Assembly (NCBI GenBank): GCA_963664405.1
Contig: OY761158.1
Span: 3,232,001 to 3,296,000 of the forward strand
Length of the DNA: 64,000 bases
Origin: Thermoanaerobaculia bacterium
GTDB lineage: Bacteria; Acidobacteriota; Thermoanaerobaculia; Multivoradales; Multivoraceae
Reading direction: 5' to 3'
Position numbers and translations under genes: made by a program. The notes under the pieces were generated by a model. The model was not told the DNA's origin. It worked only from the letters and a program-made list of their open reading frames with translations, and did no database searches. Below, in pieces: positions 4,941 to 31,048 of this stretch. Within the stretch, counting starts at the first letter, position 1. Every line of letters starts with the position of its first letter.

Positions 4941-7118
4941 GTGACGTTGCCCCTCGAGGAGATTCAGGGGAAGTACGAGATCCTCCAGAAGATCAAAGAG
5001 GGGGGCATGGGGGCGATTTACAAGGTCCGCCACCTCCTTCTCGATGAAGTCCGCATCATCAAAGTCATCCGGCCGCAGTATGCCGACGATGCGGCCCTGC
5101 AAAGTCGCTTCCGCCGCGAGGCGCGCGCGGCGATCCGATTGAGACACCCCAACATCGCTCAGCTTTACGACTTTTCGGTCGACGAGGCCGGCGAGGCGTA
5201 CATGGTGATGGAGTTCATCGACGGAGTGACTCTTCGCGAGATGCTCACCGCCAGTGGCCCCCCGTCACTTCCCTTGTCTCTCGAGATCGCGCGCCAGGGC
5301 TTGCGGGCGCTGCGTTATCTGCATCAGCAGTCCTACGTCCACCGCGACATCGCGCCCGACAATCTGATGCTGACCCGAGACTTCGAAGGTAAGCCGCTGG
5401 TCAAGCTCATCGACCTGGGGATCATCAAGCACTTGGAGGGCGAGCAGGTCGAGCTCACGGGTACCGGGATGTTTCTAGGTAAGGTGCGCTACTCCTCGCC
5501 GGAACAATTCTCCGGTAAGAAGACCGAGGTCACGGCGTGCAGTGATCTGTACTCGTTCGGCGTCATGCTCTACGAGATGGTGACCGGCGTGTTCCCTTTC
5601 GAGGGAGAGAGCATGTCGGACCTCATCGCAGCGCACCTCTTCGATCCGCCAAGGGATTTCTCCGAGACCGATCCCGAAGGGCGAATCCCTGCCGAGGTGC
5701 GCCAATCGCTCATGCAGTCCCTCGAGAAGGATCCCGCCAAGAGAGTCGGGTCGGCAGAGAAGTTTCTGGAGCTTCTTGCCGATCAGGGTTCGAGTGATTC
5801 TCTCAATCAGGATCTCGATCTGACACTCGACACGACGATCAATCTTCTGGCGGTCGATCGCGTCCGCGAGGTGGGATCGACACAAGGGCGACTCGACAAC
5901 CAGTTCGGTCTTCACGCGACTCCGCCACCGCCACCGGCGACGCCCGCCGTCGCCGGTCCGGCTCTCTTGCCCGAGGCGGAGACTCTCACCAACTCGATCG
6001 GGGCCCGGTCCACCGGCGGCTCGCGGGGGCCGCTTCTATGGGGGAGTGTGATCGTCGCGGCAGTGGCGCTCGGTCTGCTGGTCTGGCAGCTCGTGGACCG
6101 ACCGAGCCCGCCGAAGGAGGCTGTTGTCGTCACCCGAACCGCTGCGGATGTGTTCGACGAAGCCGCCGGTGTGGTGAGCGAGCCTTCGATCGACGAGGTA
6201 GCGGCACAGGCAGTTGAACGAGCCGTGGTAGAGGAGCGCGGCTCTGGTGCCGATCGGCCGGGACCTCCGGGGCCCCGCGGCGGGAGGCCGCCGCCGAGAG
6301 AGCATCGCTTGCCCTCGCCGCCATTGGAAGGCGGCGGCGGAGAACCGGCTCCGCGCGAGGGCGGTAGGCCGGTGCCGGCGGCTCGTCTTCCTGCGCGCTT
6401 TCGTGTTTCCTCATCGCTGGTACGGCCACCGCCTCCGCCTCGAGACCGGCTTGCGGTTCCAGACGACCGCGTCGCAGATGTCCGTCAGGTTGGCAGTGAG
6501 GCCAGGCTTGTTCAGCCCGTGGCCGAGGAGGTCGAGGCGCAAGAGAGCCAGCCACTGCAGCCGCAAGACCAACCTGAAGTGTCGCCGACACCGAGAGTTT
6601 ACGGCCCGGTTGCGGAGCTGACCGGTGATGGATCGAAGATCGTCGGCAAGAACGTCGGGCGACTCAAGGGGCGGTGGCTTGCAGTGGCGGACGTGGCAGT
6701 GCTCGCGACCTATGACAGCGTCTACGTCGGCGAAATCCACTTCGATCTTACGCGGAGGGCCGCCGGCCAGACCGGCGCACCCATCGACGAGGAGACGCTG
6801 AAGGGCGAGCTCCGTGAACTGCTGCTACTGAGACTCGAGGAAGCGTCCCTCTTTCAGGAGGTCATGGAAGGCAGGCCGGGCGATGACGACGTGGCCTATC
6901 TGCGCCTCAACCTCAGCTTAGAGCAGGGAAGCGGCGCTGCGAAGCCGACCTACATCCTCGAGATCCACCTTCTGGACCACGAGTCCGAAGAAGAGATCGG
7001 CCGCTACCACGCCTATGGTACCGGGCGCGTCGCTCGAGGGGCGGGGCGCAGAACAACACAGGACGAGGTTCAGGAGAGCGCCGAAGAGTTCGTGGAGCTT
7101 CTTGCAAAGACGCGTTGA
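4941..7118 (+). CDS. Hanks-type Ser/Thr protein kinase with one TM helix, Pro-rich linker and extracytoplasmic C-terminal domain
   Basis: GGMGAIY, HPNIAQLYD, HRDIAPDN, DLG, YSSPEQ, DLYSFG; TM segment LLWGSVIVAAVALGLLVW. Confidence 0.9.
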   Translation: MTLPLEEIQGKYEILQKIKEGGMGAIYKVRHLLLDEVRIIKVIRPQYADDAALQSRFRREARAAIRLRHPNIAQLYDFSVDEAGEAYMVMEFIDGVTLREMLTASGPPSLPLSLEIARQGLRALRYLHQQSYVHRDIAPDNLMLTRDFEGKPLVKLIDLGIIKHLEGEQVELTGTGMFLGKVRYSSPEQFSGKKTEVTACSDLYSFGVMLYEMVTGVFPFEGESMSDLIAAHLFDPPRDFSETDPEGRIPAEVRQSLMQSLEKDPAKRVGSAEKFLELLADQGSSDSLNQDLDLTLDTTINLLAVDRVREVGSTQGRLDNQFGLHATPPPPPATPAVAGPALLPEAETLTNSIGARSTGGSRGPLLWGSVIVAAVALGLLVWQLVDRPSPPKEAVVVTRTAADVFDEAAGVVSEPSIDEVAAQAVERAVVEERGSGADRPGPPGPRGGRPPPREHRLPSPPLEGGGGEPAPREGGRPVPAARLPARFRVSSSLVRPPPPPRDRLAVPDDRVADVRQVGSEARLVQPVAEEVEAQESQPLQPQDQPEVSPTPRVYGPVAELTGDGSKIVGKNVGRLKGRWLAVADVAVLATYDSVYVGEIHFDLTRRAAGQTGAPIDEETLKGELRELLLLRLEEASLFQEVMEGRPGDDDVAYLRLNLSLEQGSGAAKPTYILEIHLLDHESEEEIGRYHAYGTGRVARGAGRRTTQDEVQESAEEFVELLAKTR

Positions 7119-7132
7119 CGGGAGCGCTCCTA

Positions 7133-9433
7133 CTAGCCTTTGATGATCTCGACTTTGACGGGACCCTTGACTCGCATCATGCACGCGAGTCGACACTCTC
7201 CGGGCTCCAACTCGCAGAGCTCCTCGAGAGTCTCGCGCTCCTGGGCGCTGGGCTCGCCATCGACGTTCTCGCGGCCGCTCAGAATGCGCACCGGGTCGCT
7301 ACCGCAGATGCCGGCGTGACACTCGGCGGTGATGTCTACACCTTGTGCCTCGGCGAGCTCGCAAACTGTTTGCCCCTTGGCGATGGGGAGTGTCTCGCCG
7401 CTGTCGGCGAATGTGACTTGCACGCCTGCGTCATCAGCGCTCGCTGGCCCCTCCTCGGGTGCAGGCTCGACCGAGGGAGTTGGCGGTGCCGGGCGTGACG
7501 AGGTTGGCTCAGCGACTGGGGGGTCGAGCACCTGATCGTCGCGTAGGCAGAAACCCAGAGTCTGCTGCCCAACCCGAAATTGATCACCGTGCTCCAGGCG
7601 CTTGGCACTTCTCACCCGGAGGTAGGTGCCATTGGCGCTGCCGAGGTCCTTGACGACGATCGAATCCGCCTCGACCGAGAGCGCGAGATGTCGCCTCGAC
7701 AGCGTTCGATCATCGGCGTCGAGGGTGACGTCAGGCGCCTGGCGGCCCAGTACCGTTGGCTTTTCGGATAGCTCATGGCGGCCGACTTCTGTGCCCTTCT
7801 GGTCGTAGTGGATGAACGACGAGCGACCGTCACTGTGGGAGACGACGAGGAATTGGTGACCGGCTCGCACCAGGTCTCGATTTTCGAGCTTTCTCTTTGC
7901 CGCGGGTGGGACGCGCAGAAAGACGCCCGTTGAGCTGCCATCGTCGCGGAGGAAAAAACCGTCATCTCCGTGGGAGATCGAAGCGTGGCGTGCCGACAAT
8001 AAAGTGTCGTTGGGCAGCATCACATCGCAGTCGCTGGCGCGGCCGATCGTGGTGACACCGGTCGCGGCGACCGGGTACTCGTCCGCCTCTACGCCGCTGG
8101 GAAGGAGCCGGACGAGGAAGGCACCTCGGCTCTCACCGGCCGCGGGATCCTCCTCATGGCCTTCGACAGAAGGACCCGACGCCGCGACGACCTGCGCCAC
8201 CGGCACCGAGGGCGGCACTTGGACCTCGTCGTCGGCATCTTCGACATGAACGTCGATGTGCTCATGGCCCTCGAGTCTCTGACGAATCGCTTCAGCGACC
8301 AGGACTCCGTCTCTCAACGCAGACTTGATGTTCCCGCGATGCTTGACCTCGCGCAGCTCGCGAGGGTCACAGTCGAAGTCCAAGGTCTCGAAGTGTGCCT
8401 GGCTGAGGACGTCGCCGACGAGAAAGACTCCCGGCTGGCAGGTTTCCAGCCAGGGGGTTACCACCATCCTCTTCTTGTTCCTTGGCCCGCCGGTCGCCAT
8501 CCTGACGCCACACGATCCCAGCAGCCCTTCGGGTATGTCTTCACCGATACACGCTATACAGCTGGTTTTGGGGAACTCGAGATGAGTTGTTTCGCTGGGT
8601 CGTCCGTTTATGCTTCGTCGGTCGACACGGAGCGACAGATACTCACGATGGTCGCCGGCGGTGACGATGGCAGAGGGCTCGCTGAGCGGGCAGTAGCGGA
8701 TATTTCCATTACCGACGTAGGCTTCGAAGAAGACCTCCGCCAAGGCCTTGGAGACTCGTGGCAACCGGTCACCCCGATAAGACCAGTAAATCGCGCTGTT
8801 GTCGTCCGCTTCGATCTTGGCGTTCGAGATCGCGATCACGGCCTCCGCAGCTGAAGTTCCTCCTCCGACTACGCATGCCGGGCTCCCTACGTAGTGCTCC
8901 GCCTCAGAGAGGCGAAATGCGATGCCGTCGGTGTTGCCCGGGATGTCGAAGCGTCGCGGCACTCCCCGGCCGATAGCGAGCACCGCACAGCGCGCCAGAA
9001 AGGTGTGGTCGCAGCGATCCGAGTGATTCCAGGTCTTGACCTCGAGGATGCCGTCGGGCCTTCGATCGATGGCGGTGAGCTCGAAACCGATTCTGGACTC
9101 GATCTCGTGCTTGGCGTGGAGGGCCTTGAAGCTGGTGCAGAGCTGGTCCTTGTCGATCGGCGAGAACTGAAGCCCGGCGACCAGATCCCCGCCCTTGGGG
9201 AAGCGCATTTTGTCGCCGCCTCCGAAATCGGGAAGGATGAGCTTGTCTTTCGAGTAGTCGCGGATCCTCTTCATCAAGTCGTCATACTCGATGACCAGTG
9301 CCTCGATGCCGAGCTCTCTGCAGCGAAGCGCGGCCGCCGTGCCTCCGGGGCCACCGCCGACGATCAGCGCATCGACGATCGATTTTGAAGTGCTCTCTTC
9401 ACTCACCCCTTCTTGCGTCTTGCCTTCACTCAC
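7133..9433 (-). CDS. Fusion protein: TrxB/FNR-like FAD/NAD(P)H oxidoreductase + 2 FHA domains + C-terminal [2Fe-2S] ferredoxin
   Basis: IVGGGPGG (FAD), VVGGGTSAAE and SYRG (NADPH-type), PGVFLVGD; FHA motifs IGR...SARHA...GSSTG and LGR...SRRH...GSANG; CHAGICGSD...RLAC ferredoxin. Confidence 0.85.
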   Translation of the reverse strand: MSEGKTQEGVSEESTSKSIVDALIVGGGPGGTAAALRCRELGIEALVIEYDDLMKRIRDYSKDKLILPDFGGGDKMRFPKGGDLVAGLQFSPIDKDQLCTSFKALHAKHEIESRIGFELTAIDRRPDGILEVKTWNHSDRCDHTFLARCAVLAIGRGVPRRFDIPGNTDGIAFRLSEAEHYVGSPACVVGGGTSAAEAVIAISNAKIEADDNSAIYWSYRGDRLPRVSKALAEVFFEAYVGNGNIRYCPLSEPSAIVTAGDHREYLSLRVDRRSINGRPSETTHLEFPKTSCIACIGEDIPEGLLGSCGVRMATGGPRNKKRMVVTPWLETCQPGVFLVGDVLSQAHFETLDFDCDPRELREVKHRGNIKSALRDGVLVAEAIRQRLEGHEHIDVHVEDADDEVQVPPSVPVAQVVAASGPSVEGHEEDPAAGESRGAFLVRLLPSGVEADEYPVAATGVTTIGRASDCDVMLPNDTLLSARHASISHGDDGFFLRDDGSSTGVFLRVPPAAKRKLENRDLVRAGHQFLVVSHSDGRSSFIHYDQKGTEVGRHELSEKPTVLGRQAPDVTLDADDRTLSRRHLALSVEADSIVVKDLGSANGTYLRVRSAKRLEHGDQFRVGQQTLGFCLRDDQVLDPPVAEPTSSRPAPPTPSVEPAPEEGPASADDAGVQVTFADSGETLPIAKGQTVCELAEAQGVDITAECHAGICGSDPVRILSGRENVDGEPSAQERETLEELCELEPGECRLACMMRVKGPVKVEIIKG

Positions 9434-9445
9434 GTCTCGCTCACC

Positions 9446-10324
9446 TCAGCTTGTTTGATCGTCGTCCCGAAGCCTCGTGCGCAATTTTCCGAAGGCGAGC
9501 TCCGAACCGATAGGAACGTCTGCTTCTCCATCGACGCGGACGCCTTCGAGGTAGGTGTGATTGCTGCTCCCTTCGTCTCGAATGCTAACGCGGCCGCTCG
9601 TTACCGTGATGGTTGCGTGGCTACGGGAGACTTCTTCGCTGTCGAGCCGAACGTCGGCTCTTCTCGATCGACCCACACGGTTGGCTCCTTCACGAAGAGC
9701 GATCGTGGGATGGGGCTCGTCCCTTTTCAGCACTTCCAGAAAGAAGCGCGGCTGGGGGTCTTCTTTTTCGAGCAGCGCCGGCGGCACGGCAACAACTTGC
9801 GCGTCGAAACCGGTTTGCTCGGCATCGACCTCCTGCTCTGCTCGAAGAGAAGGCGGGAGGGGAGGGAGCTCGGCCTCTACACTGGTGTGATCGGGGTCGA
9901 TTCGGTCCTTCGCTGCGCCTGTTCCATCATCGATCTCGGCTTCGTTGAGGCGCGGGGGCAGGACGATGGCCTCATTCTCTGCAAGGGTGGCGTCTTTGCG
10001 CTCCTTCTGGTCGCGGGTCGGCTGTTGAAGAAGCTGAAATATGAAATCGATATCGGTCGAGAAGGTGATGACGTTGAGATCACCGAGGCGCTCGACTCCA
10101 TCAATACCGACGCCGTCAACCTGGGTACCGTTGGTACTGTTCTGATCCTCTATCAGGTACGAGCCCTGCTCTTCCTCCCACCAAATGCGGGCGTGACTCG
10201 CCGAGATGGAGGGCGCTTCGAGGACGACGTCACTGCTCGGAGCCCGTCCTACCGTTGCCCCGTCGGCGAAGTCGAAAAGAGTGCCCTTGAAGGCGCCGGT
10301 CTTGCAGAAGAGTCTTGCGCTCAT
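9446..10324 (-). CDS. Protein with two FHA domains joined by an acidic/Pro-rich linker
   Basis: VGR...SISASHA...NSTNGT and VGR...VSRSHA...GSSNHT. Confidence 0.88.
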   Translation of the reverse strand: MSARLFCKTGAFKGTLFDFADGATVGRAPSSDVVLEAPSISASHARIWWEEEQGSYLIEDQNSTNGTQVDGVGIDGVERLGDLNVITFSTDIDFIFQLLQQPTRDQKERKDATLAENEAIVLPPRLNEAEIDDGTGAAKDRIDPDHTSVEAELPPLPPSLRAEQEVDAEQTGFDAQVVAVPPALLEKEDPQPRFFLEVLKRDEPHPTIALREGANRVGRSRRADVRLDSEEVSRSHATITVTSGRVSIRDEGSSNHTYLEGVRVDGEADVPIGSELAFGKLRTRLRDDDQTS

Positions 10325-10333
10325 CGCCCTTGC

Positions 10334-11896
10334 CTATTCGGTGTCGACGTAGAGCAACAGGTTGGATCTCTGGCTCTTGTTGGGGTGGAAATAGTGACAG
10401 GTGACACATCGATCGGAGGTGAGCTTCGGGTTGTGGCACTGTTGACAGGTCTCGATTCCCGCCAGGTTCAGGATCGCCGAATTGTCCACCGACTTGTCGA
10501 TCGCCTCTTGGCCGCCGGCGAGATCGCCGATAGGGATCTGGTTATGGCACTCGAGACAACGAACCTGCAGGATGTGAGCCCGATGATCGAAGTGGGCACG
10601 GCGGAGCACCCGCTGATCCGTTTCGACTCGGCGGATCCCTGCCTTCTCGATGGAGTGGCACTTCCTGCAAGCCTCGGTCAGTGCGTCGATGACCTCCTCC
10701 GTCGCGGTGACGGTCTCGTCGGCGAGCCCTGCTCGGCGCTGGAGGTCGAGGAGGAATCGGGTCTCGTCGAGGTCCGCATAAGGGTCTTCTAACTTGCGAG
10801 ACAGTGCAGCCAGGAGCTCGGTGATTCGTTCGAGGTCCTGCTGAACCTCGGGCTCAGGCCGCGAGCGCAGGCCTAGTGCCTGGGCTTCGAGGGCAGCGAT
10901 CGCTTCCTCGTATAGCACTCGGATCTGGTGCGGAGCCACATCCGGTGTAGTGCGCAGAAGATCGGTGAGCCCGAGATCCTCATAGAGGAGCCCGCGCAGC
11001 CTTCGCAGGTTCTCCATCACCCACGGATCTTCGTGATGGAGCGGCGTTTTCATCACCCTCGGGCCGCGCTGCCGGAACTCGTTGGGGTTGGTAAAGAGCG
11101 CCCACTCTGTTCCTGGTCTACCCTCGAGTTGAATCGTCGAAAGCGTGGAGACACCCGTGACGCCTGCGGCCGCCACCGGCAGGAAGGGGGTGGCGCCAGC
11201 CGTTGTCAGATGGCAGCTGTCGCAGTGCGCCTCGAAGTCGAGAGGCTCGAAGCTGGTGCCGTCCGGCCGCGGTCGATGGCAATAGAGGCACGACTGCTCG
11301 ACGTCGGTGAGCTCTTCGATCTTCATCACTTCGCGGATGTGCTGGATGTGTGCGAAGGCCAATCCTCCTCGCTCGGGTTGCCCGTTGGCAAGAGGCTCGA
11401 ACTGAGGGTGGCCGCTGTTGAAAGAGGCGAATTCGTGACAGCCGACACACTCGAGCTCCGCGACCCGCGTCAAAGGAGCTTCTCGTCCCTCGTGCTCGAC
11501 ATGGCAGTCCATACAGTCCGGCTCGGCGTCCTCGATGTGCACACGCTGCAGGTCCTGGCTTCGGTACACGTAGTGTGCGGCCAGGGTGTAGACGCCGAGC
11601 TCGTCGCCGAACTTTTCATGGCACCCAGAGCAACTGGCGGCCATGGTCTTGCCCTCACTGTGGCAGGAGCCGCAGTCGGACTCGAGTACCGCGTGACTGG
11701 AAGACAGGGGCCCGTTCGAAAGAGCGCCCCCTCCCCGTAGCCCTATGTCATAGAGAATGAAGCTCATCACCACCGAGACAAGAAGCGCACCGACCCATAG
11801 CAGCGGGTTGCGGGAGGCGGGGAACGAGTAGCCCCTGGCGACCGGCAGGCGCAGCCGACTGAAGGTGCCCTTCTTGCCCTTGATCGCGGGGCTCAT
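10334..11896 (-). CDS. Membrane-anchored deca-heme cytochrome c (cytochrome c3-like family)
   Basis: N-terminal TM helix; 10 CxxCH motifs (CGSCH, CSGCH, CMDCH, CVGCH, CLYCH, CDSCH, CRKCH, CLECH, CQQCH, CVTCH); F.H..H axial-ligand motifs. Confidence 0.9.
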   Translation of the reverse strand: MSPAIKGKKGTFSRLRLPVARGYSFPASRNPLLWVGALLVSVVMSFILYDIGLRGGGALSNGPLSSSHAVLESDCGSCHSEGKTMAASCSGCHEKFGDELGVYTLAAHYVYRSQDLQRVHIEDAEPDCMDCHVEHEGREAPLTRVAELECVGCHEFASFNSGHPQFEPLANGQPERGGLAFAHIQHIREVMKIEELTDVEQSCLYCHRPRPDGTSFEPLDFEAHCDSCHLTTAGATPFLPVAAAGVTGVSTLSTIQLEGRPGTEWALFTNPNEFRQRGPRVMKTPLHHEDPWVMENLRRLRGLLYEDLGLTDLLRTTPDVAPHQIRVLYEEAIAALEAQALGLRSRPEPEVQQDLERITELLAALSRKLEDPYADLDETRFLLDLQRRAGLADETVTATEEVIDALTEACRKCHSIEKAGIRRVETDQRVLRRAHFDHRAHILQVRCLECHNQIPIGDLAGGQEAIDKSVDNSAILNLAGIETCQQCHNPKLTSDRCVTCHYFHPNKSQRSNLLLYVDTE

Positions 11897-11909
11897 GTCG
11901 GAAGATCAC

Positions 11910-12729
11910 TCAATAGTAGAGCACCGCGAAGACATGAAGGACGAGGAAGGCGACGAGCACCAGAGAGAGCGGAACGTGGGAATAGAGCCAGCATCGAAGG
12001 GGTAGTTGGAGAGTGTAGTGAGCGTCGAGCTCGAGCTTCGCCTCATAGAGGGCGGCGAGCTCGGTCAGCTTCTCCTGCTCCTCGGCTGAGGTGAGCCCTT
12101 TCAGATAGTGCAGATCCTTGAGATGGGACTGGATGCCTCCAGTGACGTCGGCGAAGTAGATCCACCGCCGACGCGGACCTTCGAAGGTGGGAGCCAGACG
12201 CGCTGCATAGAGTCTCTTCACCGGCTCGCTGCAGGAAGCGACACAAGACTCCGCCTTGGCGCGCACTTCGTCGACCAGCTCGGGGATACGCTCGTAGAGA
12301 ACTTCCACCGACAGCGCCGATCCGAGTACGCGGGGGATCCACTGTTGCAGCGCCAAGCCCAGAAGTCCGCTGGCGACGGTCCACAGGCTGAGGCCCCAGA
12401 GCCACCCCGTAGTCGTCCCCCTCGGGAGTCGAAAGCCGCTGTGCATGAGCATCAGCACAAGGAAGAGGCTGCCGCCGTAGATATGCAGATAGAGCCAGGA
12501 GCGGGCCGTTCCCAGACCCATTCTGATGGCGATGCGCATGGTGCGCCGGCGCATTCCGTATAGGGCGGCGGCAAGCATCAGAGTGGCGGCGCCAACGCCG
12601 TAGGCGACGCCCCAGGCATTGCCTTGGCCGGATCTCCGAGAAGGTGGCATTGGCTGCAAAGGAGAGGATGCACCCGCCGAATGCAGCCACGAACCCCCGG
12701 CGCCAAGCTGTTGCCTGCTTCCGCTTCAT
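11910..12729 (-). CDS. Integral membrane protein with two His-x13-His pairs (ferric-reductase-like di-heme b domain); apparent +1 frameshift near 12622
   Basis: WLYLHIYGGSLFLVLMLMH and WLYSHVPLSLVLVAFLVLH; N-terminal TM (MKRKQ...FSEIRP, ORF 12043-12744 frame) joins GNAWGVAYG (ORF 11910-12659) if one A is removed from CCAAGGCAAT. Confidence 0.75.
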
Positions 12730-12757
12730 GTTTCGCCGCTGCATCTTGCTCAGAGTC

Positions 12758-14386
12758 TCACTCCCGCGATTGCATCAAGTCGCGAAACTCGTCGAGAGAG
12801 CCGACGCGGTAGGCGCAGCCTTGTGGGCAGTTGGCGGTACAGGCGGGGCCGTGCCCGCTGTCGTGACAGAGGTCGCACTTGCTGGCGACCAAACGATCCT
12901 TGCCCCGCAGCCCGGCCGGGATCATATTGTCCGCCCACTGTTCTCCGGTCTCGTGCATCACGATCGCGTCGTAGGGACAGTTGTTCGAGCATGACGAGCA
13001 ACCGATGCAGATCCTCTCTTCGATCTCGACGACGTCGGCCACTCCCGCGCGATGGATAGCCCCGGTGGGGCATCCCACGAGGCATACGGGATCTCTACAG
13101 TGGTAGCAGGATCGTGGAACGAGCAGATTGTCGACTTTGTTGCCTTCGCGAACGAAGCGCGGGCGACCCTCGTGAGTGGCGGCGCAAGCGCGCACGCAGT
13201 CGTCGCAGCGTGTGCATGCCTCGAGATCGATGACCAGGATGCTGTTCCCCTGCACCAGCCCTGAGTCGAGGGCGACCTGGGTGAACTCGGCATGGCCTAG
13301 ATCGCGGCGGCTGTAGCCGGCTTCCTTGAGCCGATCCACTGCTGTTCGCCACAGTCTGTCTTCGACCTCGGGGTAGGTGCGCAGGAGTTGCTGAAGGGCG
13401 TCTCCAGGCACTCGAATCAGCTCGCTGTACTCGACCGAGACGGCACCACTTTGCCATACCTCGATCCCCTCGATCAGGAGCTCGACTTCGCCGAGCGTCA
13501 TCCCTTTCGATAGGTACGAAGAGACGATCTTTCCTTCACCGAAGTCCTGGAGCAGCTTCACAAATCCGGAACGGACCATGAAGAGGTCGCCAGCCGGCGC
13601 GCCTTGTGGAACCAGCTCCTCTCCCGGGTCCAGCGAGATGAGCTCGATGGTCTCTTTGAGGCCCTCGATGAAGAGTTGCGAGCACCCCCGGAAGAGAGGT
13701 GAGCTCGAGAGTTGAAGGCCTAGCGACCTCTCGCGATAGATACTGTCGACACGCTCCTTGAGTGCCTTCGACTTTCGTTTCATCAGGCGGAGGGCGTTGA
13801 CCCTGATCTGCACCAGCTGGCAGTCCTCGGTGGTTCGCGCAGTCACCGACTGAGGCCAGCCGCTGAGGGCTCCGATCTCGCCGAAGAGGTCGCCGGGTCC
13901 AAGTCTGGCGCCGCTACCTCGTGGCAGGTCGAAGTCCATCGAGGCGAGAAAGGTGATCTCGGTGTCGGTCGAGGTGGGGAGCCTGGGAGTGGTGACCAGC
14001 TGCGTGTATCCGGTCTCCGCTCCCTGGGGGAAGGCGGTGCGGCGGAGGTCGAAAATGGGGATCGGCTCGGTGCTGTCTCCGATCGTTTCTACGAAGACCT
14101 CGACTTCACCGCTGAGGAGGAAGAAGGCGAGGTCGATGTAGGAGCCTTCCTCGAAAAGAACCGATCCCTTTCTCCAGGTAGTGATCGAGACGTCCGGGCT
14201 GATTCTCTCGAGGAAGGTCTCGTCGTAGTCGGAAAAGATCTCTAGTTCTTTGAGCTGGTGTGGAGTGGGCTTCTCGGAGACTTGGATGATGCCGGTGTGG
14301 TCGTCGGAGGAGGTCCACCGATCCTGGTACTGCTCAATCCTGCGCAGCATGGTCTTGCCGAGATCGCCGTCGTGAGGCTCGCTCAT
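12758..14386 (-). CDS. Two cyclic-nucleotide-binding-like domains fused to an NrfC/DmsB-type 4x[4Fe-4S] domain
   Basis: LFEEG...SGEVEV...LGPGDLFGEIG and LVPQG...SGFVKL...GMTLGE cNMP folds; CTRCDDCVRAC, CYHCRDPVCLVGCP, CIGCSSCSNNCP, CDLC...ACTANCP. Confidence 0.88.
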   Translation of the reverse strand: MSEPHDGDLGKTMLRRIEQYQDRWTSSDDHTGIIQVSEKPTPHQLKELEIFSDYDETFLERISPDVSITTWRKGSVLFEEGSYIDLAFFLLSGEVEVFVETIGDSTEPIPIFDLRRTAFPQGAETGYTQLVTTPRLPTSTDTEITFLASMDFDLPRGSGARLGPGDLFGEIGALSGWPQSVTARTTEDCQLVQIRVNALRLMKRKSKALKERVDSIYRERSLGLQLSSSPLFRGCSQLFIEGLKETIELISLDPGEELVPQGAPAGDLFMVRSGFVKLLQDFGEGKIVSSYLSKGMTLGEVELLIEGIEVWQSGAVSVEYSELIRVPGDALQQLLRTYPEVEDRLWRTAVDRLKEAGYSRRDLGHAEFTQVALDSGLVQGNSILVIDLEACTRCDDCVRACAATHEGRPRFVREGNKVDNLLVPRSCYHCRDPVCLVGCPTGAIHRAGVADVVEIEERICIGCSSCSNNCPYDAIVMHETGEQWADNMIPAGLRGKDRLVASKCDLCHDSGHGPACTANCPQGCAYRVGSLDEFRDLMQSRE

Positions 14387-16464
14387 TCGCTACTCCTCCT
14401 GATGCTTTGATAGAGGATCTCCAGCCGCTCCTTGATCAGCACAAGGGTCTCCTCGATCGATGCCATGTCGGTTGAGGGGAAGCTGGGCAGCTCGAGGGGC
14501 CCGGCTTCTTCTGCGGTGGAGATCGAGGATCGATCGATCGGTCGCGCGCGTGGCGGCAGCTGGCGGGCCGGCGATCGAGAAGCTCGCGCCTCAGAGATCG
14601 TAGGACCGCCGCTCGAGCTCGGAGAAGCTGATGTCGAGGGGCCGCCTGAAGAGGCGCTGGCGATCTCTACTTGCTCGACCGTCGGGATGCCACCTCGCTT
14701 GTCGAGGACCTTCGCCCATCCCGCCGCTAGATCTGTGGTGGAGGTTTGGGGGCGCTCCCAATGCTGGATCTTCGCTAAACGATCCTCGAGGTCGAAATCT
14801 TTGCCGGTCGGATGGCCGGTGGAAATGAGACCAGGATCGGTAATGTAGTGGCAGCCGGCGCAGCGGAGCGCCAAGGTCTCGGCATGTCGAAGGTCCTTCA
14901 TGCCGAGTCCGAGAGCCTTCTGGAAACCCGCTCGCCGCCGACCTTGCGACTTCTCTCCCTCCTTGTGGGGCTCGAGGTAGCGGTCGGCGGGGCCGTGGCA
15001 GCTCTGACAGCTGACCCCGTCCCAAATGTCGCGCCGCTCCTTGCCCGAGACGATGGTGCCGTGGCAGTCCATACACAGCTGGGTGCCCTTGGTCGACTGC
15101 GAGCTCGGGAGACCGTAGAAGCGAGCGACCTGCAAGTTCTTCGGCTCCTGATCGTGGAAGGGGGCTGCGGAGCCTTCATGGGGGTCACTGAGCCACCACG
15201 CGTTCTGTTGCTCGTGGCAGCCGCTACAGGCGCCGGCGTCGAGGGTCTTGTGCTGCTCCGGCGGCCGTAGCCTGGTCCTCTTCTCGTAGCTGACGGTTGT
15301 GATTGCGGCCGCGCGTGGGGAAGCCGCCTTGGCCGCGCCACTCGCCACTGCTGCCACTGGGGCCTCCGAGTCGCCGGCGCCGCGGATCGGAGCCGCCGAG
15401 GGCGTCCCGTCGGCGGTATTCGTTGCTAGGTCGACCGGCGCCGGATCAGCCGGCTCCGGCAGCCCCCTGCCCTCCACCAGAGGGTCGATGGCGGCGAGCT
15501 GGGAGCCATCATGATTCTCGACGAAGCGGCGCGTCTCAGCACCGACGCGATCGGCAAGATCGAGAAGATTGGCGGTGTTACCGAGCGTCACTTTGACGCC
15601 CCTGGCTGCAGTGAGGATCCGCACCGCTTCGGGGATCTCCGCGACAGAGCTCAGATCCTGGATCTCCGCTACCGCATTGCGAACCCGTCGCTGCATGCTC
15701 TTGGCGTAGATGCCCTGCTCTGTCGCGATCGCGAAGCCTCGAACACTGAACTCGAGGTCCAGCGCCCGGCCGACGAAGTACATGATCCGCTTGCGCTCCG
15801 GCGGTCGCTCGAGGTTCTCTTTCGAGCCGCCGAGCTGGGACTGGAGGAAGTTGTGCCGCATTGCTCCCTGGGAGCGCTCCACGAGCTCGAAGCCGACTGT
15901 CCCCGTGGTATGCCCACCTATATTGACCAACTTCTCATTGGGGACGAGATGACACTGAAAACAGTTCGCCCCCACCGGGTAGAGGTCGGAAGGCCTGCGC
16001 ATCCCGGCTTGGCGGCTCTCTTCGATGCGCTGGAGACGATGCTCGCTCGACTCGTCGATGTGGCTGCCGCCGGGCCCATAGTCATTGTGGCTGTCGATCC
16101 AATCCTTGCCGGCGCCATGACACGACTCGCAGGAGACTCCGGCGCTCGCGCGCAGTTGGTCTCTGCGTACCTGCGTCGTGTAGTGGCAGTTTAGACAAAG
16201 CGCATCTCGTTTGATCAGTCGGAACCCCATCCTGCCGGCAATCGTCTCTGCCGATTCGAGGCGGTGCAGAGTCTTGAAGCTGGTGGCGTGAGGAGTTCCC
16301 GACCACACCTCATACTCCTGGGCATGGCATTCGCCGCAGCGCTCCGCTGTGGCGATCTTCGCAGGGTCTTCGCGCGCGAAGGAGGCTGTCTCCTGCGCGC
16401 CGGTCCAGGATGCCGCACCAGAGACGGCGACGAGGACGGCAACGAGAAGCTTTGCCGGTGGCAT
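14383..16464 (-). CDS. Exported octa-heme cytochrome c with two c554-like tetraheme domains
   Basis: Start MPPAKLLVAVLVAVSGAASWTGA (signal peptide) overlaps upstream stop as TGATG at 16464; CGECH, CLNCH, CESCH, CFQCH / CSGCH, CMDCH, CQSCH, CAGCH separated by an Ala/Pro linker. Confidence 0.88.
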   Translation of the reverse strand: MPPAKLLVAVLVAVSGAASWTGAQETASFAREDPAKIATAERCGECHAQEYEVWSGTPHATSFKTLHRLESAETIAGRMGFRLIKRDALCLNCHYTTQVRRDQLRASAGVSCESCHGAGKDWIDSHNDYGPGGSHIDESSEHRLQRIEESRQAGMRRPSDLYPVGANCFQCHLVPNEKLVNIGGHTTGTVGFELVERSQGAMRHNFLQSQLGGSKENLERPPERKRIMYFVGRALDLEFSVRGFAIATEQGIYAKSMQRRVRNAVAEIQDLSSVAEIPEAVRILTAARGVKVTLGNTANLLDLADRVGAETRRFVENHDGSQLAAIDPLVEGRGLPEPADPAPVDLATNTADGTPSAAPIRGAGDSEAPVAAVASGAAKAASPRAAAITTVSYEKRTRLRPPEQHKTLDAGACSGCHEQQNAWWLSDPHEGSAAPFHDQEPKNLQVARFYGLPSSQSTKGTQLCMDCHGTIVSGKERRDIWDGVSCQSCHGPADRYLEPHKEGEKSQGRRRAGFQKALGLGMKDLRHAETLALRCAGCHYITDPGLISTGHPTGKDFDLEDRLAKIQHWERPQTSTTDLAAGWAKVLDKRGGIPTVEQVEIASASSGGPSTSASPSSSGGPTISEARASRSPARQLPPRARPIDRSSISTAEEAGPLELPSFPSTDMASIEETLVLIKERLEILYQSIRRSSE

Positions 16465-18009
16465 CAGAACTTGGTGAGCAGCTCGACGCGCCCACCGAAG
16501 AACTCTTGGTCGCGGTTCGGCCGCAACGGGTCGTCGGTGTACGAGCCGTATCCGTCGACGATAGCGACGAAGTGTTTTCCGAACGCGGCTTGGTAGCGGA
16601 TTGTAAGAGCTGTCGCGTCGTCGATATCGCTGGCGGTGCCCACGCGGCCCCCGATCTCTGCGATCACCTGTTTGCGAGTGTGGTCGAAGAACCACTGATA
16701 GCCGAAGGCGCCACCGGCGACATCACGCGCTCGGTTGCTCAGAGGAGCGCCGTAGTTGCCGATACCGACGGCGGCGAAATTGATTCCCGCACGGCCCAGC
16801 GGCCCGCCGGTGGCGGGCCCCCGAGCAGCCGAGGAGAACTCGTCTGCGGCAGCGAAGAGGGTGAAGTAGGCCAGATTGTGGGTGCGGTGCGGGGTCGTGG
16901 AGATCTCGGCGAAGAGCAGCGCCCCGTCGGTGGCGAACTCGGTTTCTCGTTCCGTGGCGAAAGAGCCGAGAATACGGAAAGAGGTGTTCCATTGGCCGAA
17001 GCGCTGCACCGCGCTCAGTCCTCCAGCCACCAGGTCGCCTACCAGCTCGTCCTTGGCGACGACGTAGACGAGGTCGATATCCATCGTCGTTTTGCGAAAG
17101 TCGGTGGAGGTGAGGAAGCCGAGAAGATTGTCGTTGTACTCCTGAGTGTTGTTTGTCGGTCCTCCACGGCCTACTTCGTTGAATCCCCAAAAAAAGGTCA
17201 TGCGGTAGTTGGAGGTGTTCGGTTGCAGCGTATTCCGCGTTATGCCGATGCCGTCGATCGTGTCGTTGATGAGCAGGCCTTCCTGAAAGAGAAGGGGTTG
17301 GCGGCCCACAGAGAAGCCCACGTCGGTGCGCTTGAAGTCGTTCTTCGACAGGTTGGGGAAGATCTCGCCGAAGTCGCCTTCGAAGAAGAGGCCGGTAATC
17401 TCCAGATTGAGCTCATCGACGAACTCTCCGTCGAGACCGGGATCCGGGTGGTCGAAGTAGAAGGTGCTGAAACGACCGTAGCGATCGAGTGGCCGAAGAG
17501 CGAGGACCAGTCGCTCGGTGCCGGAGAGTGAAAGATTGAAGAAGAGGTCGAGACGGTTGCTCCATTCGGTGATGCGATCGTCGCCGTCGAAGCTCTGGAT
17601 AGAGGTACGGTAAGTGCCGAAGAGGAGCAGTGAAGGCTGCCAAACAGCACCGGTCGGAAGCTTGAATCCTTTGTCGAGGGTGCCGGTACCGAGGAAGGGC
17701 TCGCCAAGCTCGAGGAGCGGTCTCGGGCGCTGTGGAAAGTCGTCGAGCTGGAGCGGAATGCGCTCATCACTGAGCCGGCTGCCGTGGTGTTTCTTGCCAG
17801 TCCCCTCGTCGCCGTCTGCATCGGTGACCTTCTCTGTCCGCATCGTCGGCACTGAGATCCGGATCGATGGCGAGGCGGTAGGCGGCAGCTGCACGGATCA
17901 GCTCGGCGGTGCTCTTCACCCACGCCTGCGAAGGGCTTGCACCGGCGACCAAGAGCGCCCCGAAGCACGGGAGCAGAGCCACCGCGTTTCTCAAGCTAGT
18001 TCCACTCAT
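16464..18009 (-). CDS. Probable outer-membrane beta-barrel (porin-like) protein; frameshift near 17830-17890 separates the signal peptide from the body
   Basis: Signal peptide MSGTSLRNAVALLPCFGALLVAGASPSQA (ORF 17767-18030 frame); body (ORF 16464-17894) is rich in G/F/Y/D alternating strands and ends GGRVELLTKF (terminal Phe, BAM-type signal); no TM helices or CxxCH. Confidence 0.65.
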
Positions 18010-18035
18010 TGAGCTCTTTCCGACTCCCACTTGCT

Positions 18036-19808
18036 CTACCTCTCGAGCTCGACTTCGCGTTCCCAGAGCACCAGATGACCTGCCACCACGGCCTCGGCGA
18101 CCTCTCGGGCGCTCATGAAGTAGTCGAAACCGACGTCCTTGATCTCATTCACCAGATTGATCGGGACCATCCCCGCGACGATCTCCACTTTGGCCGTGTA
18201 GGGCGCCTCGCCATTGAGCGCTGCGCCGTCGACGGCGTAGCTTGCCCAGACGCTGTCGAGCGGGGCGATGCCCTGCTTGTGCTTACGGGCGCCACCGGGC
18301 CGGCCGGTGAGGATGGTCGAGAAGGTCGAGGGTCGCAGGAAGGGGAGTGGGTCCGGAGAATAGTTCACGGCCAGCACCTGTTCTCGCTCACCCCCCCGCA
18401 CCATGCGAGTCAGGAAGCGGGATTGCAGGCTGAAGAGTTGCTTGTCGAGCGGCAGCTCACCGTTGTGCACATAGAGAGAGTGAGTGTCGCGGACGTCTCC
18501 GTTGGGGTCGAGATCGCCCGACTTGAACACCACCCGCCCGCTGCCGTCGCTGACTGTGACCCGTAGCCAGACCAATCGCTCCGCGTCGAAGCCGGTGGGA
18601 ACTCCATGACCGTCGGTTGCGTTTTTCACCTCGACCCGGAAGCGGATCTTCTTTGCGTCGACGCGCTCGACGACGATGTCGCCGATCTCGTACCCGGCCT
18701 GCAGGACTTTCTTTCGAGCCCGATCCGCCTCCGCGAGAAGATCGAGATTGTCGCTGATGACGTCTCTGGCATCGTAGCGGTCGTCGGCGGAGGTCCACCT
18801 TTCAGGGAACTCGAAGTCAGGAGGTAGCTCTTCCTCGAAGTCGTCGGTTCCCCAGCCGGCCTTCCAGTCGAAGCTGAGCCACTCGCGGATGCTGGCCATC
18901 TCCGTGGCTTCGGCGTTGTGGGGAAAGATGCCGGGGTGGACAACCGAGTAATCGGGGCCGATGAACATGTGGCCGGTTCGTTTGCGTGGCCGAGTCGGCG
19001 TGTCGCCGACGATCGCCGCCGGAGCCTCGAGGTAACCTGAGACTTTTCCGGGCTCGGTGCCCATGTGGCAGTCCTGGCAGGTGACGCCGTTCTTCGCGGC
19101 TGGCGAGGTCTTGAATTCGCTGAAGGCCTCTTCGAGCCTGAAGCCGTTGACCAGATTGACATCGTGACAGGTGCCGCAGAAACCGGGTGTGGTGAGCTGA
19201 AAGAACTGTTCTGCGTCGGTGTGAATCGCGCGACCGGCCTGACCGCGCTCGGTGTTCACTCGATAATCCTCGCTGGCGATCACCCGTTTGAGCTCCTCGT
19301 TTCCGGTGGGGCCGTAGACCGGGTCGAAGATGTCTCCCTCGACGATGGCGAGCCTGCCGCTGAGCTTGCCGTAGGCAGTGTCGAGACGATGACAAACGAT
19401 GCAGGTTACGCCTTCTCTGGAGGTGGGGTGGCGGTCCATGTTGCTCATGAACTCGGGCTCGCCCAGGTTCATGCCCACCGGCGTATGACAGCGGATGCAG
19501 AAGTCGCCGTTGGTGCCGTTGGTGATCTTGAGCACCGTGCCGTGAAAGGCATTGAAGATGGGGCTCATCTGAGCGTAGGCGTGGGGCGACACCGACCATT
19601 CCCTGTAATGGTCGGGATGGCAGGTGGCGCAGGCTAATGCCGAAGGAAAGCGGTCCTCGAGGAAAACCTGCTCATGCTCTCGATCCGCGAGCTCGGCGCC
19701 TGGGTCTCTCTGCTCCTGCGCAGACGCCGATGAGACCAGCAGCAGAAGCGAGGCAAGCGTCGGCCACAGAAGTGAAGAAGGACGAAAAAATCCCTGCCGA
19801 GTCCCCAT
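18036..19808 (-). CDS. Exported penta-heme cytochrome c (c554-like N-terminus, heme-free C-terminal domain)
   Basis: Signal peptide ending SASA-Q; CATCH, CIRCH, CIVCH, CGTCH, CQDCH; GHGVPTG...RLVWLRV motif; GGAGG RBS upstream. Confidence 0.9.
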   Translation of the reverse strand: MGTRQGFFRPSSLLWPTLASLLLLVSSASAQEQRDPGAELADREHEQVFLEDRFPSALACATCHPDHYREWSVSPHAYAQMSPIFNAFHGTVLKITNGTNGDFCIRCHTPVGMNLGEPEFMSNMDRHPTSREGVTCIVCHRLDTAYGKLSGRLAIVEGDIFDPVYGPTGNEELKRVIASEDYRVNTERGQAGRAIHTDAEQFFQLTTPGFCGTCHDVNLVNGFRLEEAFSEFKTSPAAKNGVTCQDCHMGTEPGKVSGYLEAPAAIVGDTPTRPRKRTGHMFIGPDYSVVHPGIFPHNAEATEMASIREWLSFDWKAGWGTDDFEEELPPDFEFPERWTSADDRYDARDVISDNLDLLAEADRARKKVLQAGYEIGDIVVERVDAKKIRFRVEVKNATDGHGVPTGFDAERLVWLRVTVSDGSGRVVFKSGDLDPNGDVRDTHSLYVHNGELPLDKQLFSLQSRFLTRMVRGGEREQVLAVNYSPDPLPFLRPSTFSTILTGRPGGARKHKQGIAPLDSVWASYAVDGAALNGEAPYTAKVEIVAGMVPINLVNEIKDVGFDYFMSAREVAEAVVAGHLVLWEREVELER

Positions 19809-25762: not shown

Positions 25763-27987
25763 ATGGCGGTCTTTCGGAGACTCTGTCGAGTGCTTCTTGC
25801 AAACGGCACTCGAAGGGTTGCCGGGGAGACTGGAGCCGAGTCCTTGTCAACCGGGCCGGTGAAGAGCCGATCGCGCGTTCGAGCCGCAGTTGCCACCCTC
25901 GGGTCGCTACGGTCACTCGCTTCCGGCCTCCGAGAGGAGGGGCCGCTTCTAGTCTCGAAGAAGACGCTGAAGAGGGTGGTGGCAATTCTGCTTACGTTCA
26001 GCTTTGTCGCGAGCCTCCGCTTCTACAGACTCGATGAGCTGCAGGGGGAGTGGTACGGCGACATATCTACTCTCTACGAGTACGTCCAAGCCGTCCGCGA
26101 TCACAACTTTCCTCCCGATCTGTATAACCTGGGCGTCGGGCCACTCTACCCTCTGGTGCTCTCACCGATCCTCGCCGTACTCGGCGAGACCTACCTGGGC
26201 ATCAAGTGTGCGGCCGCGCTGTTCAGCCTTTTCGGGCTCTTCGTCCTGTTCCTGCTCTGCCGCCGACTGCAAGGGACGGGCTTCGCCTTGGTCGCGACTA
26301 TGGTCGCCGGCACGGGCTCCTGGCTATTGGTGTTTAGCCGGCTGGGCGACATCCAGGCTCTCGTGTTGCTGTTCACGGTCGGACCCCTCGCACTCGCAGC
26401 GCACGTCATCGAGACGCGACCCGTCCATGGTGCGACCGCCACGCTTTGCGGCTTCATGACGGGGTCCTCCCTGTACCTTTACGGAGCCGCCTTTGCTGTC
26501 CCGGCACTGATCACCCTGGTAATGGTGGCCTTCCACTTCTTCACGCCCGAGCCCCGCAGGTATGAACGCAGACATCTGTGGCTCTACTTCGTCGCGCTGA
26601 CACTCGCCGTGCTTCCGATGGCGCTGAGCTACCTTCGTAGTCCAGAAGCCGTCGCCCAAGGCCACTTCGCGACTCGCCTCGTACGCGGTCGTGGCGCTGT
26701 TTCGACGGTGGCAGGCAATTTTGCCGAGGCACTCCTCGCCTACGTCACCGTAGGAGACGTCAACTCCAGAGCGAATCCTCCTCTCTTGCCGCACATCGAC
26801 CGCCTCAGCCTGCTGATGGTCGTCCTGGGGTGTGTCTTTTGGTTGGGGCGCAGCCGGAGGCGATGGGGTTTTGTTCTCATGGGCGGCTTCCTTCTCATGC
26901 ACGCGCCTTCCATACTCGCCGAATCGGCGGGAGCCAACGCCGGGCGAACGATCGCCGCTGCGCCCTTCGCCTACATCCTGGCAGCGGAGGGCTCTGGGGC
27001 TTCGCAGCTGTTATTCAGCGCCTATTGGGAAGTCCAGCGCGCGCGGCGGCGCTGGCGCTGCTCCTGATCGGAGTCACGCTCGTCAACATGGACAGATACT
27101 TCGACCGCTACATCGGCGCGCTCCCGTACGAGAACACTCACATCGCGCGATCAATTACGACCTATGTCGGCCTGCTCCCGGCGCACACCAGCGTGTATCT
27201 GGTCGGATCAACCTGGTCACCTGGCGGTATGCCTGAGCCGAAAAGCATTCGCTACGCGATGCGAGATCCGACCTACTTCTTCGAGGAGCCCGCCGAGCGT
27301 TTGGACTGTAACCGCTTACGCCAGCTTCGGCGGCCCGCGGTGCTGATCTGGCGCTATCAGTCCGAGTTACCGAGCCCCAGCGTCAGCGACTGCGGCAGAT
27401 ACATCCCCGCCCAGATTTTTAGCAGCGACAAGAATCTACCCATGTTCTACGCTGCGCCTGTGCTCAGCGAGCCCGTAGCCGGGGAGATGGTCCCTCCCCG
27501 CGTAGAGCCCACGATTCCCCCGGGAAGTCCGAACCGCTCTGAACCGACGTCGCCGGCAGATTACAGCTGGCAAACCGCTCGTGTGAGCCTGAACGGCCAG
27601 GAGGTGGAAATGCTTTACCTCCCGATCGACCAAGGGCAGCCCGATGACGCGCTGGACGGCGACGGGGCAACCCTGATGCGCGGCGCCAGGGACAACCCCT
27701 ACATTCTGGAGCTGCACTTCCCTCAGCCGACGCCGGTCGTCTCTTTCAGCCTGGATCTCGGTTTCATGCAGGAGTACTCGGTCGAAGTCTCGGTTCGGGA
27801 CCGCGACGGCAAGGTTGTCACGGTGTCGATGCGCGAGAGGCCGAACCCAGGCACTTTCCCGCGGGCTGAGTTGATCCTGCCAGCTGGGCCGCTGTCTATA
27901 AAAGTCGCTCGCATAGCGATCACGGACTTCCGTGAGCGGCCGAGGGAAGGATGGCACGTTCACGTGTACGAGTTGCGAATACGCTAG
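25763..27987 (+). CDS. GT-C (ArnT/PMT-like, family 39) membrane glycosyltransferase with a C-terminal discoidin-like beta-sandwich; frameshift near 26985
   Basis: LRFYRL.....WYGD loop, many TM helices (ORF 25763-27067) continuing as GGLWGFAA... in ORF 26830-27987; ends LDGD..T...NP..LEL.FP.P...VHVYEL. Confidence 0.7.
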
Positions 27988-30896: not shown

Positions 30897-31048
30897 CCGC
30901 CGTGAGGGACTTTTGGCCCGCTGCATGAGAACTTTGACGAGGAAGGCGCTGGGATCTCGTAGCGGGCGCCAGTCGGTGCATGCGGGGGCGTTCATCTTCG
31001 TCTCCTCGACGAGGATGGGTTAGGTTGTCTACGGAGCCGCTTCCGACA

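Follow-up and report, generated by a model that had tools for sequence, protein, structure and literature searches.

The window analysed here is 64,000 nucleotides of a Thermoanaerobaculia bacterium genome (contig OY761158.1, positions 3,232,001 to 3,296,000). It carries eight minus-strand genes between positions 19808 and 7133, with a plus-strand Ser/Thr kinase gene alongside (Table 1). Judged by sequence, this operon is a new and conserved variant of the electron transfer system named Ptd or PCC4, and not a strict member of it. In this strain two of the eight genes are frameshifted. Hence, what follows distinguishes the system, as it occurs in intact relatives, from the copy in the window.

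Three of the products are multihaem cytochromes. Their 5, 8 and 10 CxxCH motifs sum to the 23 reported, together with eight genes, by a first-pass annotation of the same DNA. A 24th CxxCH lies inside a cluster motif of the Fe-S protein and is not conserved among homologues. Pfam searches bore out the domains assigned to three further products: the cNMP fold twice with a four-cluster ferredoxin (16 Fe-S cysteines), a pair of FHA domains, and Pyr_redox with two FHA domains and Fer2. The octahaem matches cytochrome c554 (1BVB; E 3e-4). Its start is at 16464, where it overlaps the porin stop by 1 base, and not at 16695 as first annotated. Intergenic gaps under 30 bp, also claimed, are obtained only with the start codons at 18009 and 12744, both of which are out of frame with the gene bodies. 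The kinase gene is next to the operon, as described, with its 3′ end 14 bp from the last operon gene. Lying on the plus strand and convergent with the operon, it falls outside the co-oriented run. Cytochrome c assembly genes are present in the genome, and the porin and membrane protein genes occur in one copy each. A promoter and terminator scan did not exceed chance (1 versus 1.6 and 9 versus 9.5).

Table 1. Predicted products of the operon and of the adjacent kinase gene. Positions are those of the window.
Predicted product	Positions	Strand	Features and evidence
PtdA-type periplasmic pentahaem cytochrome c, 590 residues	18036..19808	-	signal peptide; immunoglobulin (Ig)-like C-terminal domain; 5 CxxCH
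PtdB-type outer-membrane beta-barrel, frameshifted	16464..18009	-	AlphaFold model; structural matches
Periplasmic octahaem cytochrome, 693 residues, with signal peptide	14383..16464	-	8 CxxCH; PF13435 twice; two c554-like tetrahaem domains (duplicated PtdD)
PtdE-type cytoplasmic protein, cNMP fold x2 and 4x[4Fe-4S]	12758..14386	-	Pfam; homologue alignment
PtdF/PCC4 inner-membrane di-haem-b protein, frameshifted	11910..12744	-	two WX3HX13H motifs
PtdG-type decahaem cytochrome, periplasm-facing	10334..11896	-	10 CxxCH; hydropathy, one N-terminal inner-membrane helix (31-49)
FHA-linker-FHA adaptor, disordered linker	9446..10324	-	PF00498 twice; conserved Thr113 and Thr147 motifs
TrxB/YpdA-like flavoprotein with FHA-FHA and [2Fe-2S]	7133..9433	-	Pfam; no redox CxxC; NADPH-type YRG motif
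Membrane Hanks-type Ser/Thr kinase, one helix (363-381)	4941..7118	+	PF00069; candidate regulator

The order of the eight genes is not due to chance, because it recurs complete in 12 of 30 loci (L021-L050), including a Gemmatimonadota locus. A full-length orthologue of the Fe-S subunit (PtdE) was found in 11 of 40 relatives, and matches to the membrane protein (PtdF) came from 51 of 301 genomes in the phylum. For the reductase query used, matches were confined to 5 of 151 class genomes. Genus g11, from the same family and with smaller genomes (3.7-5.1 Mb), gave no reductase match with that query (0/21) and no full-length PtdE (0/10). Three Ignavibacteria/Chitinophagales loci combine the five inner genes with a PP2C phosphatase, a kinase and another outer module. 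A different outer set accompanies the inner module in L044:1789-8915, L045 and L046: an HbpS-like haem protein, a 560-residue protein that fits no family, an LVIVD protein with 10 haems and a c554-like protein with 3.

The core of the system is known from in silico work under two names, PCC4 (He et al., 2017; PMC5566968) and the ptdABCDEFG operon, with function stated to be unknown in the accessible text of the preprint (Elbon, Stewart and Glass, 2024; bioRxiv 10.1101/2023.11.21.568154). As in ptdABCDEFG, the window encodes a pentahaem with a beta-sandwich, a porin, a c554-like cytochrome, a cNMP-Fe/S protein, a ferric-reductase-like membrane protein and a decahaem, in the same order. The porin (frameshifted in the window) adjoins PtdA, and PtdE, PtdF and PtdG follow one another. 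A metagenome scan with the window porin returned the canonical order of pentahaem, porin, FNR-Fer2 protein, tetrahaem, PtdE, membrane protein and decahaem. The likeness to Ptd is drawn from the available part of the published description and from these canonical-order loci, not from the paper's own protein sequences. Two defining features fail. An octahaem with two c554-like domains replaces the tetrahaem PtdD. The FNR-type PtdC, a FAD_binding_6/NAD_binding_1/Fer2 protein in canonical loci, is absent after the porin; there is a TrxB-like-FHA2-Fer2 protein at the operon end instead. Hence, we class the operon as a variant that would work in the manner of Ptd/PCC4, and not as a strict member. 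The first-pass annotation was aware of no characterised system with this full architecture. The system is indeed uncharacterised, but full novelty is not supported, its core having already been described under these two names.

The same annotation had traced a chain of cofactors that starts at an NAD(P)H flavoprotein in the cytoplasm, passes Fe-S clusters and a membrane protein with two haems, and ends at cytochromes of the periplasm. This chain is supported by fusion of its inner parts elsewhere. The reductase is joined to PtdE in 11 loci (TrxB-cNMP2-Fer4) and PtdE to the membrane protein in 5 (cNMP2-Fer4-membrane protein). In 4 loci the arrangement is FHA-helix-7 haems-helix-Fer4-TrxB. The overlap between these fusions suggests that the parts form a single complex across the inner membrane. 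Every class of locus has a cytoplasmic NAD(P)H flavoprotein, which is of the FNR type in canonical Ptd. Unlike thioredoxin reductase TrxB, the window reductase has no redox CxxC ahead of the NADPH-binding motif; the TrxB disulfide is missing from every domain compared (0/39). The NADPH-type YRG motif is present in 21/21 sequences. In PtdF, the predicted His-x13-His motif occurs twice, each time as WX3HX13H. The four histidines are invariant in 26/26 homologues, and the two tryptophans are found in 25 and 26 of 26. Both glycines of the SGXXG motif (helix 4 of PCC4) are conserved in 26/26, and the serine in fewer than 90%. The PCC4 membrane protein has five helices; hydropathy gave no clear helix count for PtdF, whose helix 1 is out of frame in the window. 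Neighbours of PtdF in the Atlas carry the name 'ferric reductase-like transmembrane', a label that we take as a lead only. In L068-L071 (e.g. L069:6369-9665) single FHA-helix-seven haems-helix-2x[4Fe-4S]-TrxB-like polypeptides lie beside a cNMP2-Fer4-membrane-protein fusion, giving a two-gene inner conduit.

Of all the operon products, PtdA is the best conserved, with identities of 69-78% among Acidobacteriota orthologues (octahaem, 42-49%; decahaem, 35-54%). It aligns to Thermochromatium tepidum c552 (PDB 5ZE8; E 7.6e-17), in which we take Cys241 to be a ligand of haem 2, and weakly to MccSep (E 0.058). MccSep (MccSep/ExtKL) is a polysulfide reductase whose site, a His/Cys haem 2 with selenocysteine (Sec), lies beside an Ig domain, according to the accessible text of bioRxiv 10.1101/2025.11.18.688581. 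PtdA shares with both proteins the pentahaem and Ig-like scaffold and a GHxxPxG loop. A porin gene near the pentahaem gene is a further likeness to MccSep, as far as that text describes it. Unlike MccSep, PtdA has neither a haem-ligating cysteine nor Sec or Cys at the second site, so its chemistry should differ. In the alignments, from which the haem-2 pocket is read, the region of the MccSep haem-2 cysteine is Leu225-Glu226 in PtdA, with Glu in 91/101 representatives. The Sec position is Phe407; among 73 sequences, Phe occurs in 44, Leu in 26 and Cys in none. All 10 cysteines of PtdA sit in CxxCH motifs, and four candidate distal histidines are conserved for the five haems. Read-through to a Sec residue was considered and rejected: the gene ends in TAG and Phe occupies the site. 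On the simplest reading, PtdA would be a terminal enzyme with an open, Glu-flanked catalytic haem and a chemistry other than that of MccSep. Elsewhere in the genome (G000:C1:3152484-3155312), a 942-residue frame encodes a second, membrane-linked pentahaem on the PtdA/c552 scaffold.

Searches with the porin sequence matched no family and no solved relative. With 13 sequences, a strand-periodicity test did not reach significance; with 69 it was marginal (46/1000 shuffles). The beta-barrel assignment was settled by an AlphaFold model (pLDDT 89, pTM 0.85, 444 residues) with 17-18 long strands in a barrel of ~390 residues. The best structural matches are OpdQ (Z 27.4), MOMP (27.1), OccAB3 (26.1) and AlgE (24.0). 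MtrB is not among the best 50 matches listed, which does not exclude MtrB. Solute channels of the Occ/AlgE/MOMP type have 18 strands; MtrB, which sheathes a decahaem, has 26. The modelled barrel takes a small solute-channel fold, not that of an MtrB sleeve, and no lipoprotein or surface cytochrome was seen in the operon sequence. Hence, a path through the barrel like that of MtrAB, as first envisaged, is not supported.

A phosphate-binding cassette arginine is the mark of domains that bind cAMP or cGMP. Unlike such domains, both pockets of PtdE lack this residue: Gln179 stands in its place in pocket A, and pocket B has no arginine. The cyclic-nucleotide gate suggested by the two cNMP folds is therefore not supported in this lineage. 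In pocket A, Gln is found in 10 rows of the window class; canonical PtdE has Arg in 17 of 18 rows, with 1 unparsed. Fused-class proteins have both cNMP arginines in 11/11 and lack the PtdE insertion. The window class is one clade of 33 rows. Members of the fused class (L032-L035, L051 from Sphingobium, and L058-L064) encode TrxB-cNMP2-Fer4 with both cNMP arginines intact, mostly with an FHA-decahaem. These loci are candidates for a true cyclic-nucleotide-gated version. Several fused-class loci have an unrelated 9-10-haem protein of ~1200 residues nearby, with LVIVD repeats in L045.

Arg564, Ser579, Arg580, Ser599 and Asn601 of the second reductase FHA domain (FHA2) are present in 21/21 sequences, and the same positions line the phosphothreonine cleft of Bdellovibrio DgcB, as described in the accessible part of PMC6733907. 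The cleft Arg, Ser and Asn are each found in 22/23 sequences for adaptor FHA2, and in 16, 19 and 19 of 23 for adaptor FHA1. Reductase FHA1 lacks the Asn in 17/21. A Thr motif was defined, after inspection of the same sequences, as a Thr with a hydrophobic residue at +2. Conserved motifs are centred on Thr12 in the PtdE N-terminus, Thr117 in the PtdE insertion, and Thr113 and Thr147 in the adaptor linker. The latter two are conserved in 19 and 20 of 21 sequences, inside otherwise unalignable linkers. Observed versus shuffled motif counts were 33 versus 5.0 for the adaptor linker, 19 versus 3.5 for the PtdE N-terminus and 28 versus 5.1 for the PtdE insertion. The two reductase linkers gave 2 and 0.

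A kinase gene lies within 3.5 kb in 14 of the 26 window-class loci with visible flanks (window included), against a one-sided background of ~4%. The corresponding counts are 3/14 for canonical loci and 1/11 and 0/4 for fused loci; these counts retain L056, mis-binned as canonical, and both L027 and L087, which have the same PtdE. In a quick tree, the kinases belong to at least three lineages, one with a PP2C phosphatase. There the window kinase shares a clade with kinases beside 5 other loci. The genome encodes 53 kinases, including two paralogues in that clade. Taken together, the intact residues of the FHA domains, the conservation of the Thr motifs and the nearby kinase genes make the phospho-control proposed by the first-pass annotation plausible. 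In L041, L082 and L148 a kinase gene directly follows the decahaem or FHA adaptor gene, and the reductase gene is absent from its usual place. Independent FHA insertions occur in canonical Ptd clusters, as FNR-FHA-Fer2 (L108:6891-8753) and cNMP-FHA-cNMP-cNMP-Fer4 (L146:13674-15863).

The copy of the operon in the window is damaged. The long porin frame (16464-17897) lacks a signal peptide; in another frame, the ATG at 18009 begins a typical one, and a hexamer model places the frame switch near 17838. Of 86 porins whose 5′ end is complete, 79 have an in-frame hydrophobic stretch scoring at least 1.8; the window porin scores 0.39. In PtdF, the first helix (from the ATG at 12744) is homologous to that of relatives but out of frame, with the break at about 12624. 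Contigs from public runs X3 and X4, from two studies, match the window across both frameshift sites with no difference, and X6 matches across the second. On this basis assembly error was rejected as the source, although one of the public runs may be the source sample. A related seawater contig (X8) has one base fewer at 12624, and its frame is intact there; among the relatives' contigs listed, none has an indel at the porin site. A frameshift control with relatives' genes was insensitive, missing the known break at 12624. A genome-wide hexamer scan gave 301 candidates, a number inflated by antisense shadows that provides no background rate. Because the public-run contigs carry the same sequence, we read both frameshifts as real in this strain. 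The barrel cannot be exported and PtdF lacks its first helix; hence, this copy is probably inactive and decaying. A working system in this genome, as first proposed, is accordingly not supported. It is very unlikely that internal restarts or recoding at both sites keep the copy functional. Six genes are unbroken and the long membrane-protein frame retains the four haem histidines, but neither site shows a slippery run, the barrel has no in-frame hydrophobic signal, and the related contig shows an intact frame at 12624. The hexamer scan also marked probable frameshifted genes elsewhere in the window, at 30980-35505 (+) near 32362 and at 35619-36585 (-) near 36087. Overlapping frames at 25763-27987 (+) look like another. 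This suggests that pseudogenes in the window are not confined to the operon.

For intact relatives, we give a probability of about 0.5 to quinone-independent electron export that serves a PtdA enzyme with its own solute channel and is subject to phospho-docking. Electrons would pass from NADPH to FAD and the [2Fe-2S] cluster of the last gene product, then to the four [4Fe-4S] clusters of PtdE and the two b haems of PtdF. From PtdF they would reach the membrane-anchored decahaem, the soluble octahaem and finally the pentahaem PtdA, with no need for quinone. PtdA would most likely be the terminal enzyme, reducing a small solute at the open or Glu-flanked haem 2. The adjacent barrel would be a channel for that solute and not a sleeve for a wire. 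The cNMP folds would no longer sense cyclic nucleotides in this lineage. Instead, the Ser/Thr kinase would phosphorylate the conserved threonines of PtdE and the FHA adaptor. The reductase FHA would then dock on PtdE, replacing the covalent reductase-PtdE fusion of other lineages.

Several observations weigh against this scheme. The MccSep alignment is weak (E 0.058) and puts Cys239 against Leu225, one residue off Glu226. The loss of the cNMP arginine and the gain of FHA domains map to the one clade of 33 rows, and so count as one event. The Thr motif was defined post hoc on the same sequences, and the homologues are kin; the shuffle test thus overstates. No kinase is nearby in 12/26 loci, and the outer (sensor) domains of the kinases vary between loci. 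In six or more fused-class loci the decahaem-fused FHA lacks the Ser and Asn, which indicates that FHA can be structural. Lastly, the model of He et al. (2017), in the accessible text, has a quinone-active membrane protein and inward flow (PMC5566968).

Three other explanations were considered. True extracellular electron transfer, which the first-pass annotation and both papers suggest, would have a cytochrome dock within or beneath the barrel and trade electrons with minerals, chelated metals or electrodes. This seems unlikely to us. The barrel, with ~390 residues and 17-18 long strands, matches solute channels and not the 26 strands of MtrB, no lipoprotein or surface cytochrome was seen, and PtdA looks enzyme-like. 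Such transfer would nonetheless fit the adjacency of porin and pentahaem in essentially every locus showing both positions, the relatedness of PtdA-like folds to archaeal nanowire cytochromes (PMC11976967) and, from the part of the paper available, the presence of PCC4 in genomes of Fe(II) oxidisers (PMC5566968). Flow may also be inward or quinone-linked. PtdA would then oxidise a reduced substrate, and electrons would go to quinone via the membrane protein or to NADP+ via the Fe-S clusters. Outward flow runs down the membrane potential, which favours it. It would supply the periplasm with reductant below the quinol potential, at a cost that would explain tight control. A simple quinone reductase would not need the cytoplasmic NAD(P)H flavoprotein found in every class, often fused to Fe-S or membrane parts, and inward flow as far as NADP+ would call for a donor well below -320 mV. 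These points leave inward flow improbable, although c554-like domains have a role in oxidative nitrogen chemistry. Also in its favour are the quinone-active di-haem protein of the He et al. (2017) model, as far as the accessible text goes (PMC5566968), and, from the available part of the preprint, the occurrence of Ptd in Nitrospirales and its high transcription in oxygen-deficient water (bioRxiv 10.1101/2023.11.21.568154).

The remaining explanation accepts the redox line and takes the FHA and cNMP folds for structural docking modules, with the kinase a bystander. The degenerate FHA on fused-class decahaems, the missing Asn of reductase FHA1 (17/21) and the supply of 53 kinases, two of them paralogues in the clade of the window kinase, are all consistent with this. 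Structural modules would not, conversely, require the five invariant phosphothreonine-cleft residues of reductase FHA2 or a Thr conserved inside otherwise unalignable linkers. The co-oriented kinase and PP2C genes of the three Ignavibacteria/Chitinophagales loci and the independent FHA insertion in an FNR-type PtdC (L108) also weigh against this explanation. We therefore doubt that the FHA domains are purely structural.

Ptd/PCC4 is widespread and usually counted as extracellular electron transfer. From the sequences and the barrel model, an enzyme system of the periplasm, served by a solute channel, seems to us the more likely role. The residues that make this testable are Glu226 and Phe407 of PtdA, Thr12, Thr117 and Gln179 of PtdE, Thr113 and Thr147 of the adaptor, and Arg564 of the reductase. 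More tentatively, and with clearly more doubt than belief, we suggest phosphorylation-switched export. Here, docking of the NADPH reductase through phosphothreonine and FHA would replace both the fusion and the cyclic-nucleotide control of sister lineages. PtdA would represent a new pentahaem enzyme class (MccSep scaffold, Glu-flanked open haem) with its own solute channel, fed below the quinol potential. If so, the membrane potential would be used to deliver such reductant to this enzyme class.

The comparison with known systems places the window operon as follows. No paper was found that ties FHA domains to a multihaem cluster of this kind, in a search that covered the supplements of the two defining papers incompletely. 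Multihaem-barrel clusters in marine Acidobacteriota are mentioned in the accessible text of bioRxiv 10.1101/2020.10.01.322446; its supplement, and Supplementary Figure 4 of He et al. (2017), may describe this variant, which limits that negative. Beyond the two failing Ptd features, the window differs from ptdABCDEFG in its extra FHA2 adaptor, adjacent kinase and lost cNMP arginine, and 'forkhead' is absent from the available text of the preprint (bioRxiv 10.1101/2023.11.21.568154). With PCC4, as its accessible description has it, the operon shares a porin, 5- and 10-haem periplasmic cytochromes, an inner-membrane protein with two WX3HX13H motifs and an upstream Fe-S gene (subgroup II). It differs in its cytochromes, which have 8, 5 and 10 haems instead of 4, 5 and 10. 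The main text of He et al. (2017) mentions neither FHA nor a kinase, and its model ends at the quinone pool. As in MtrAB and MtoAB, a barrel gene stands beside multihaem genes; unlike in those systems, the barrel is smaller and of the Occ/AlgE/MOMP type, and the decahaem is anchored in the inner membrane. As in the FHA self-switch proteins GarA/OdhI and, from the accessible part of its description, DgcB (PMC6733907), an FHA domain with an intact phosphothreonine cleft is found with a conserved Thr that has a hydrophobic residue at +2. Unlike in those proteins, the FHA domain here is joined to a flavin/Fe-S reductase within an electron transfer operon.

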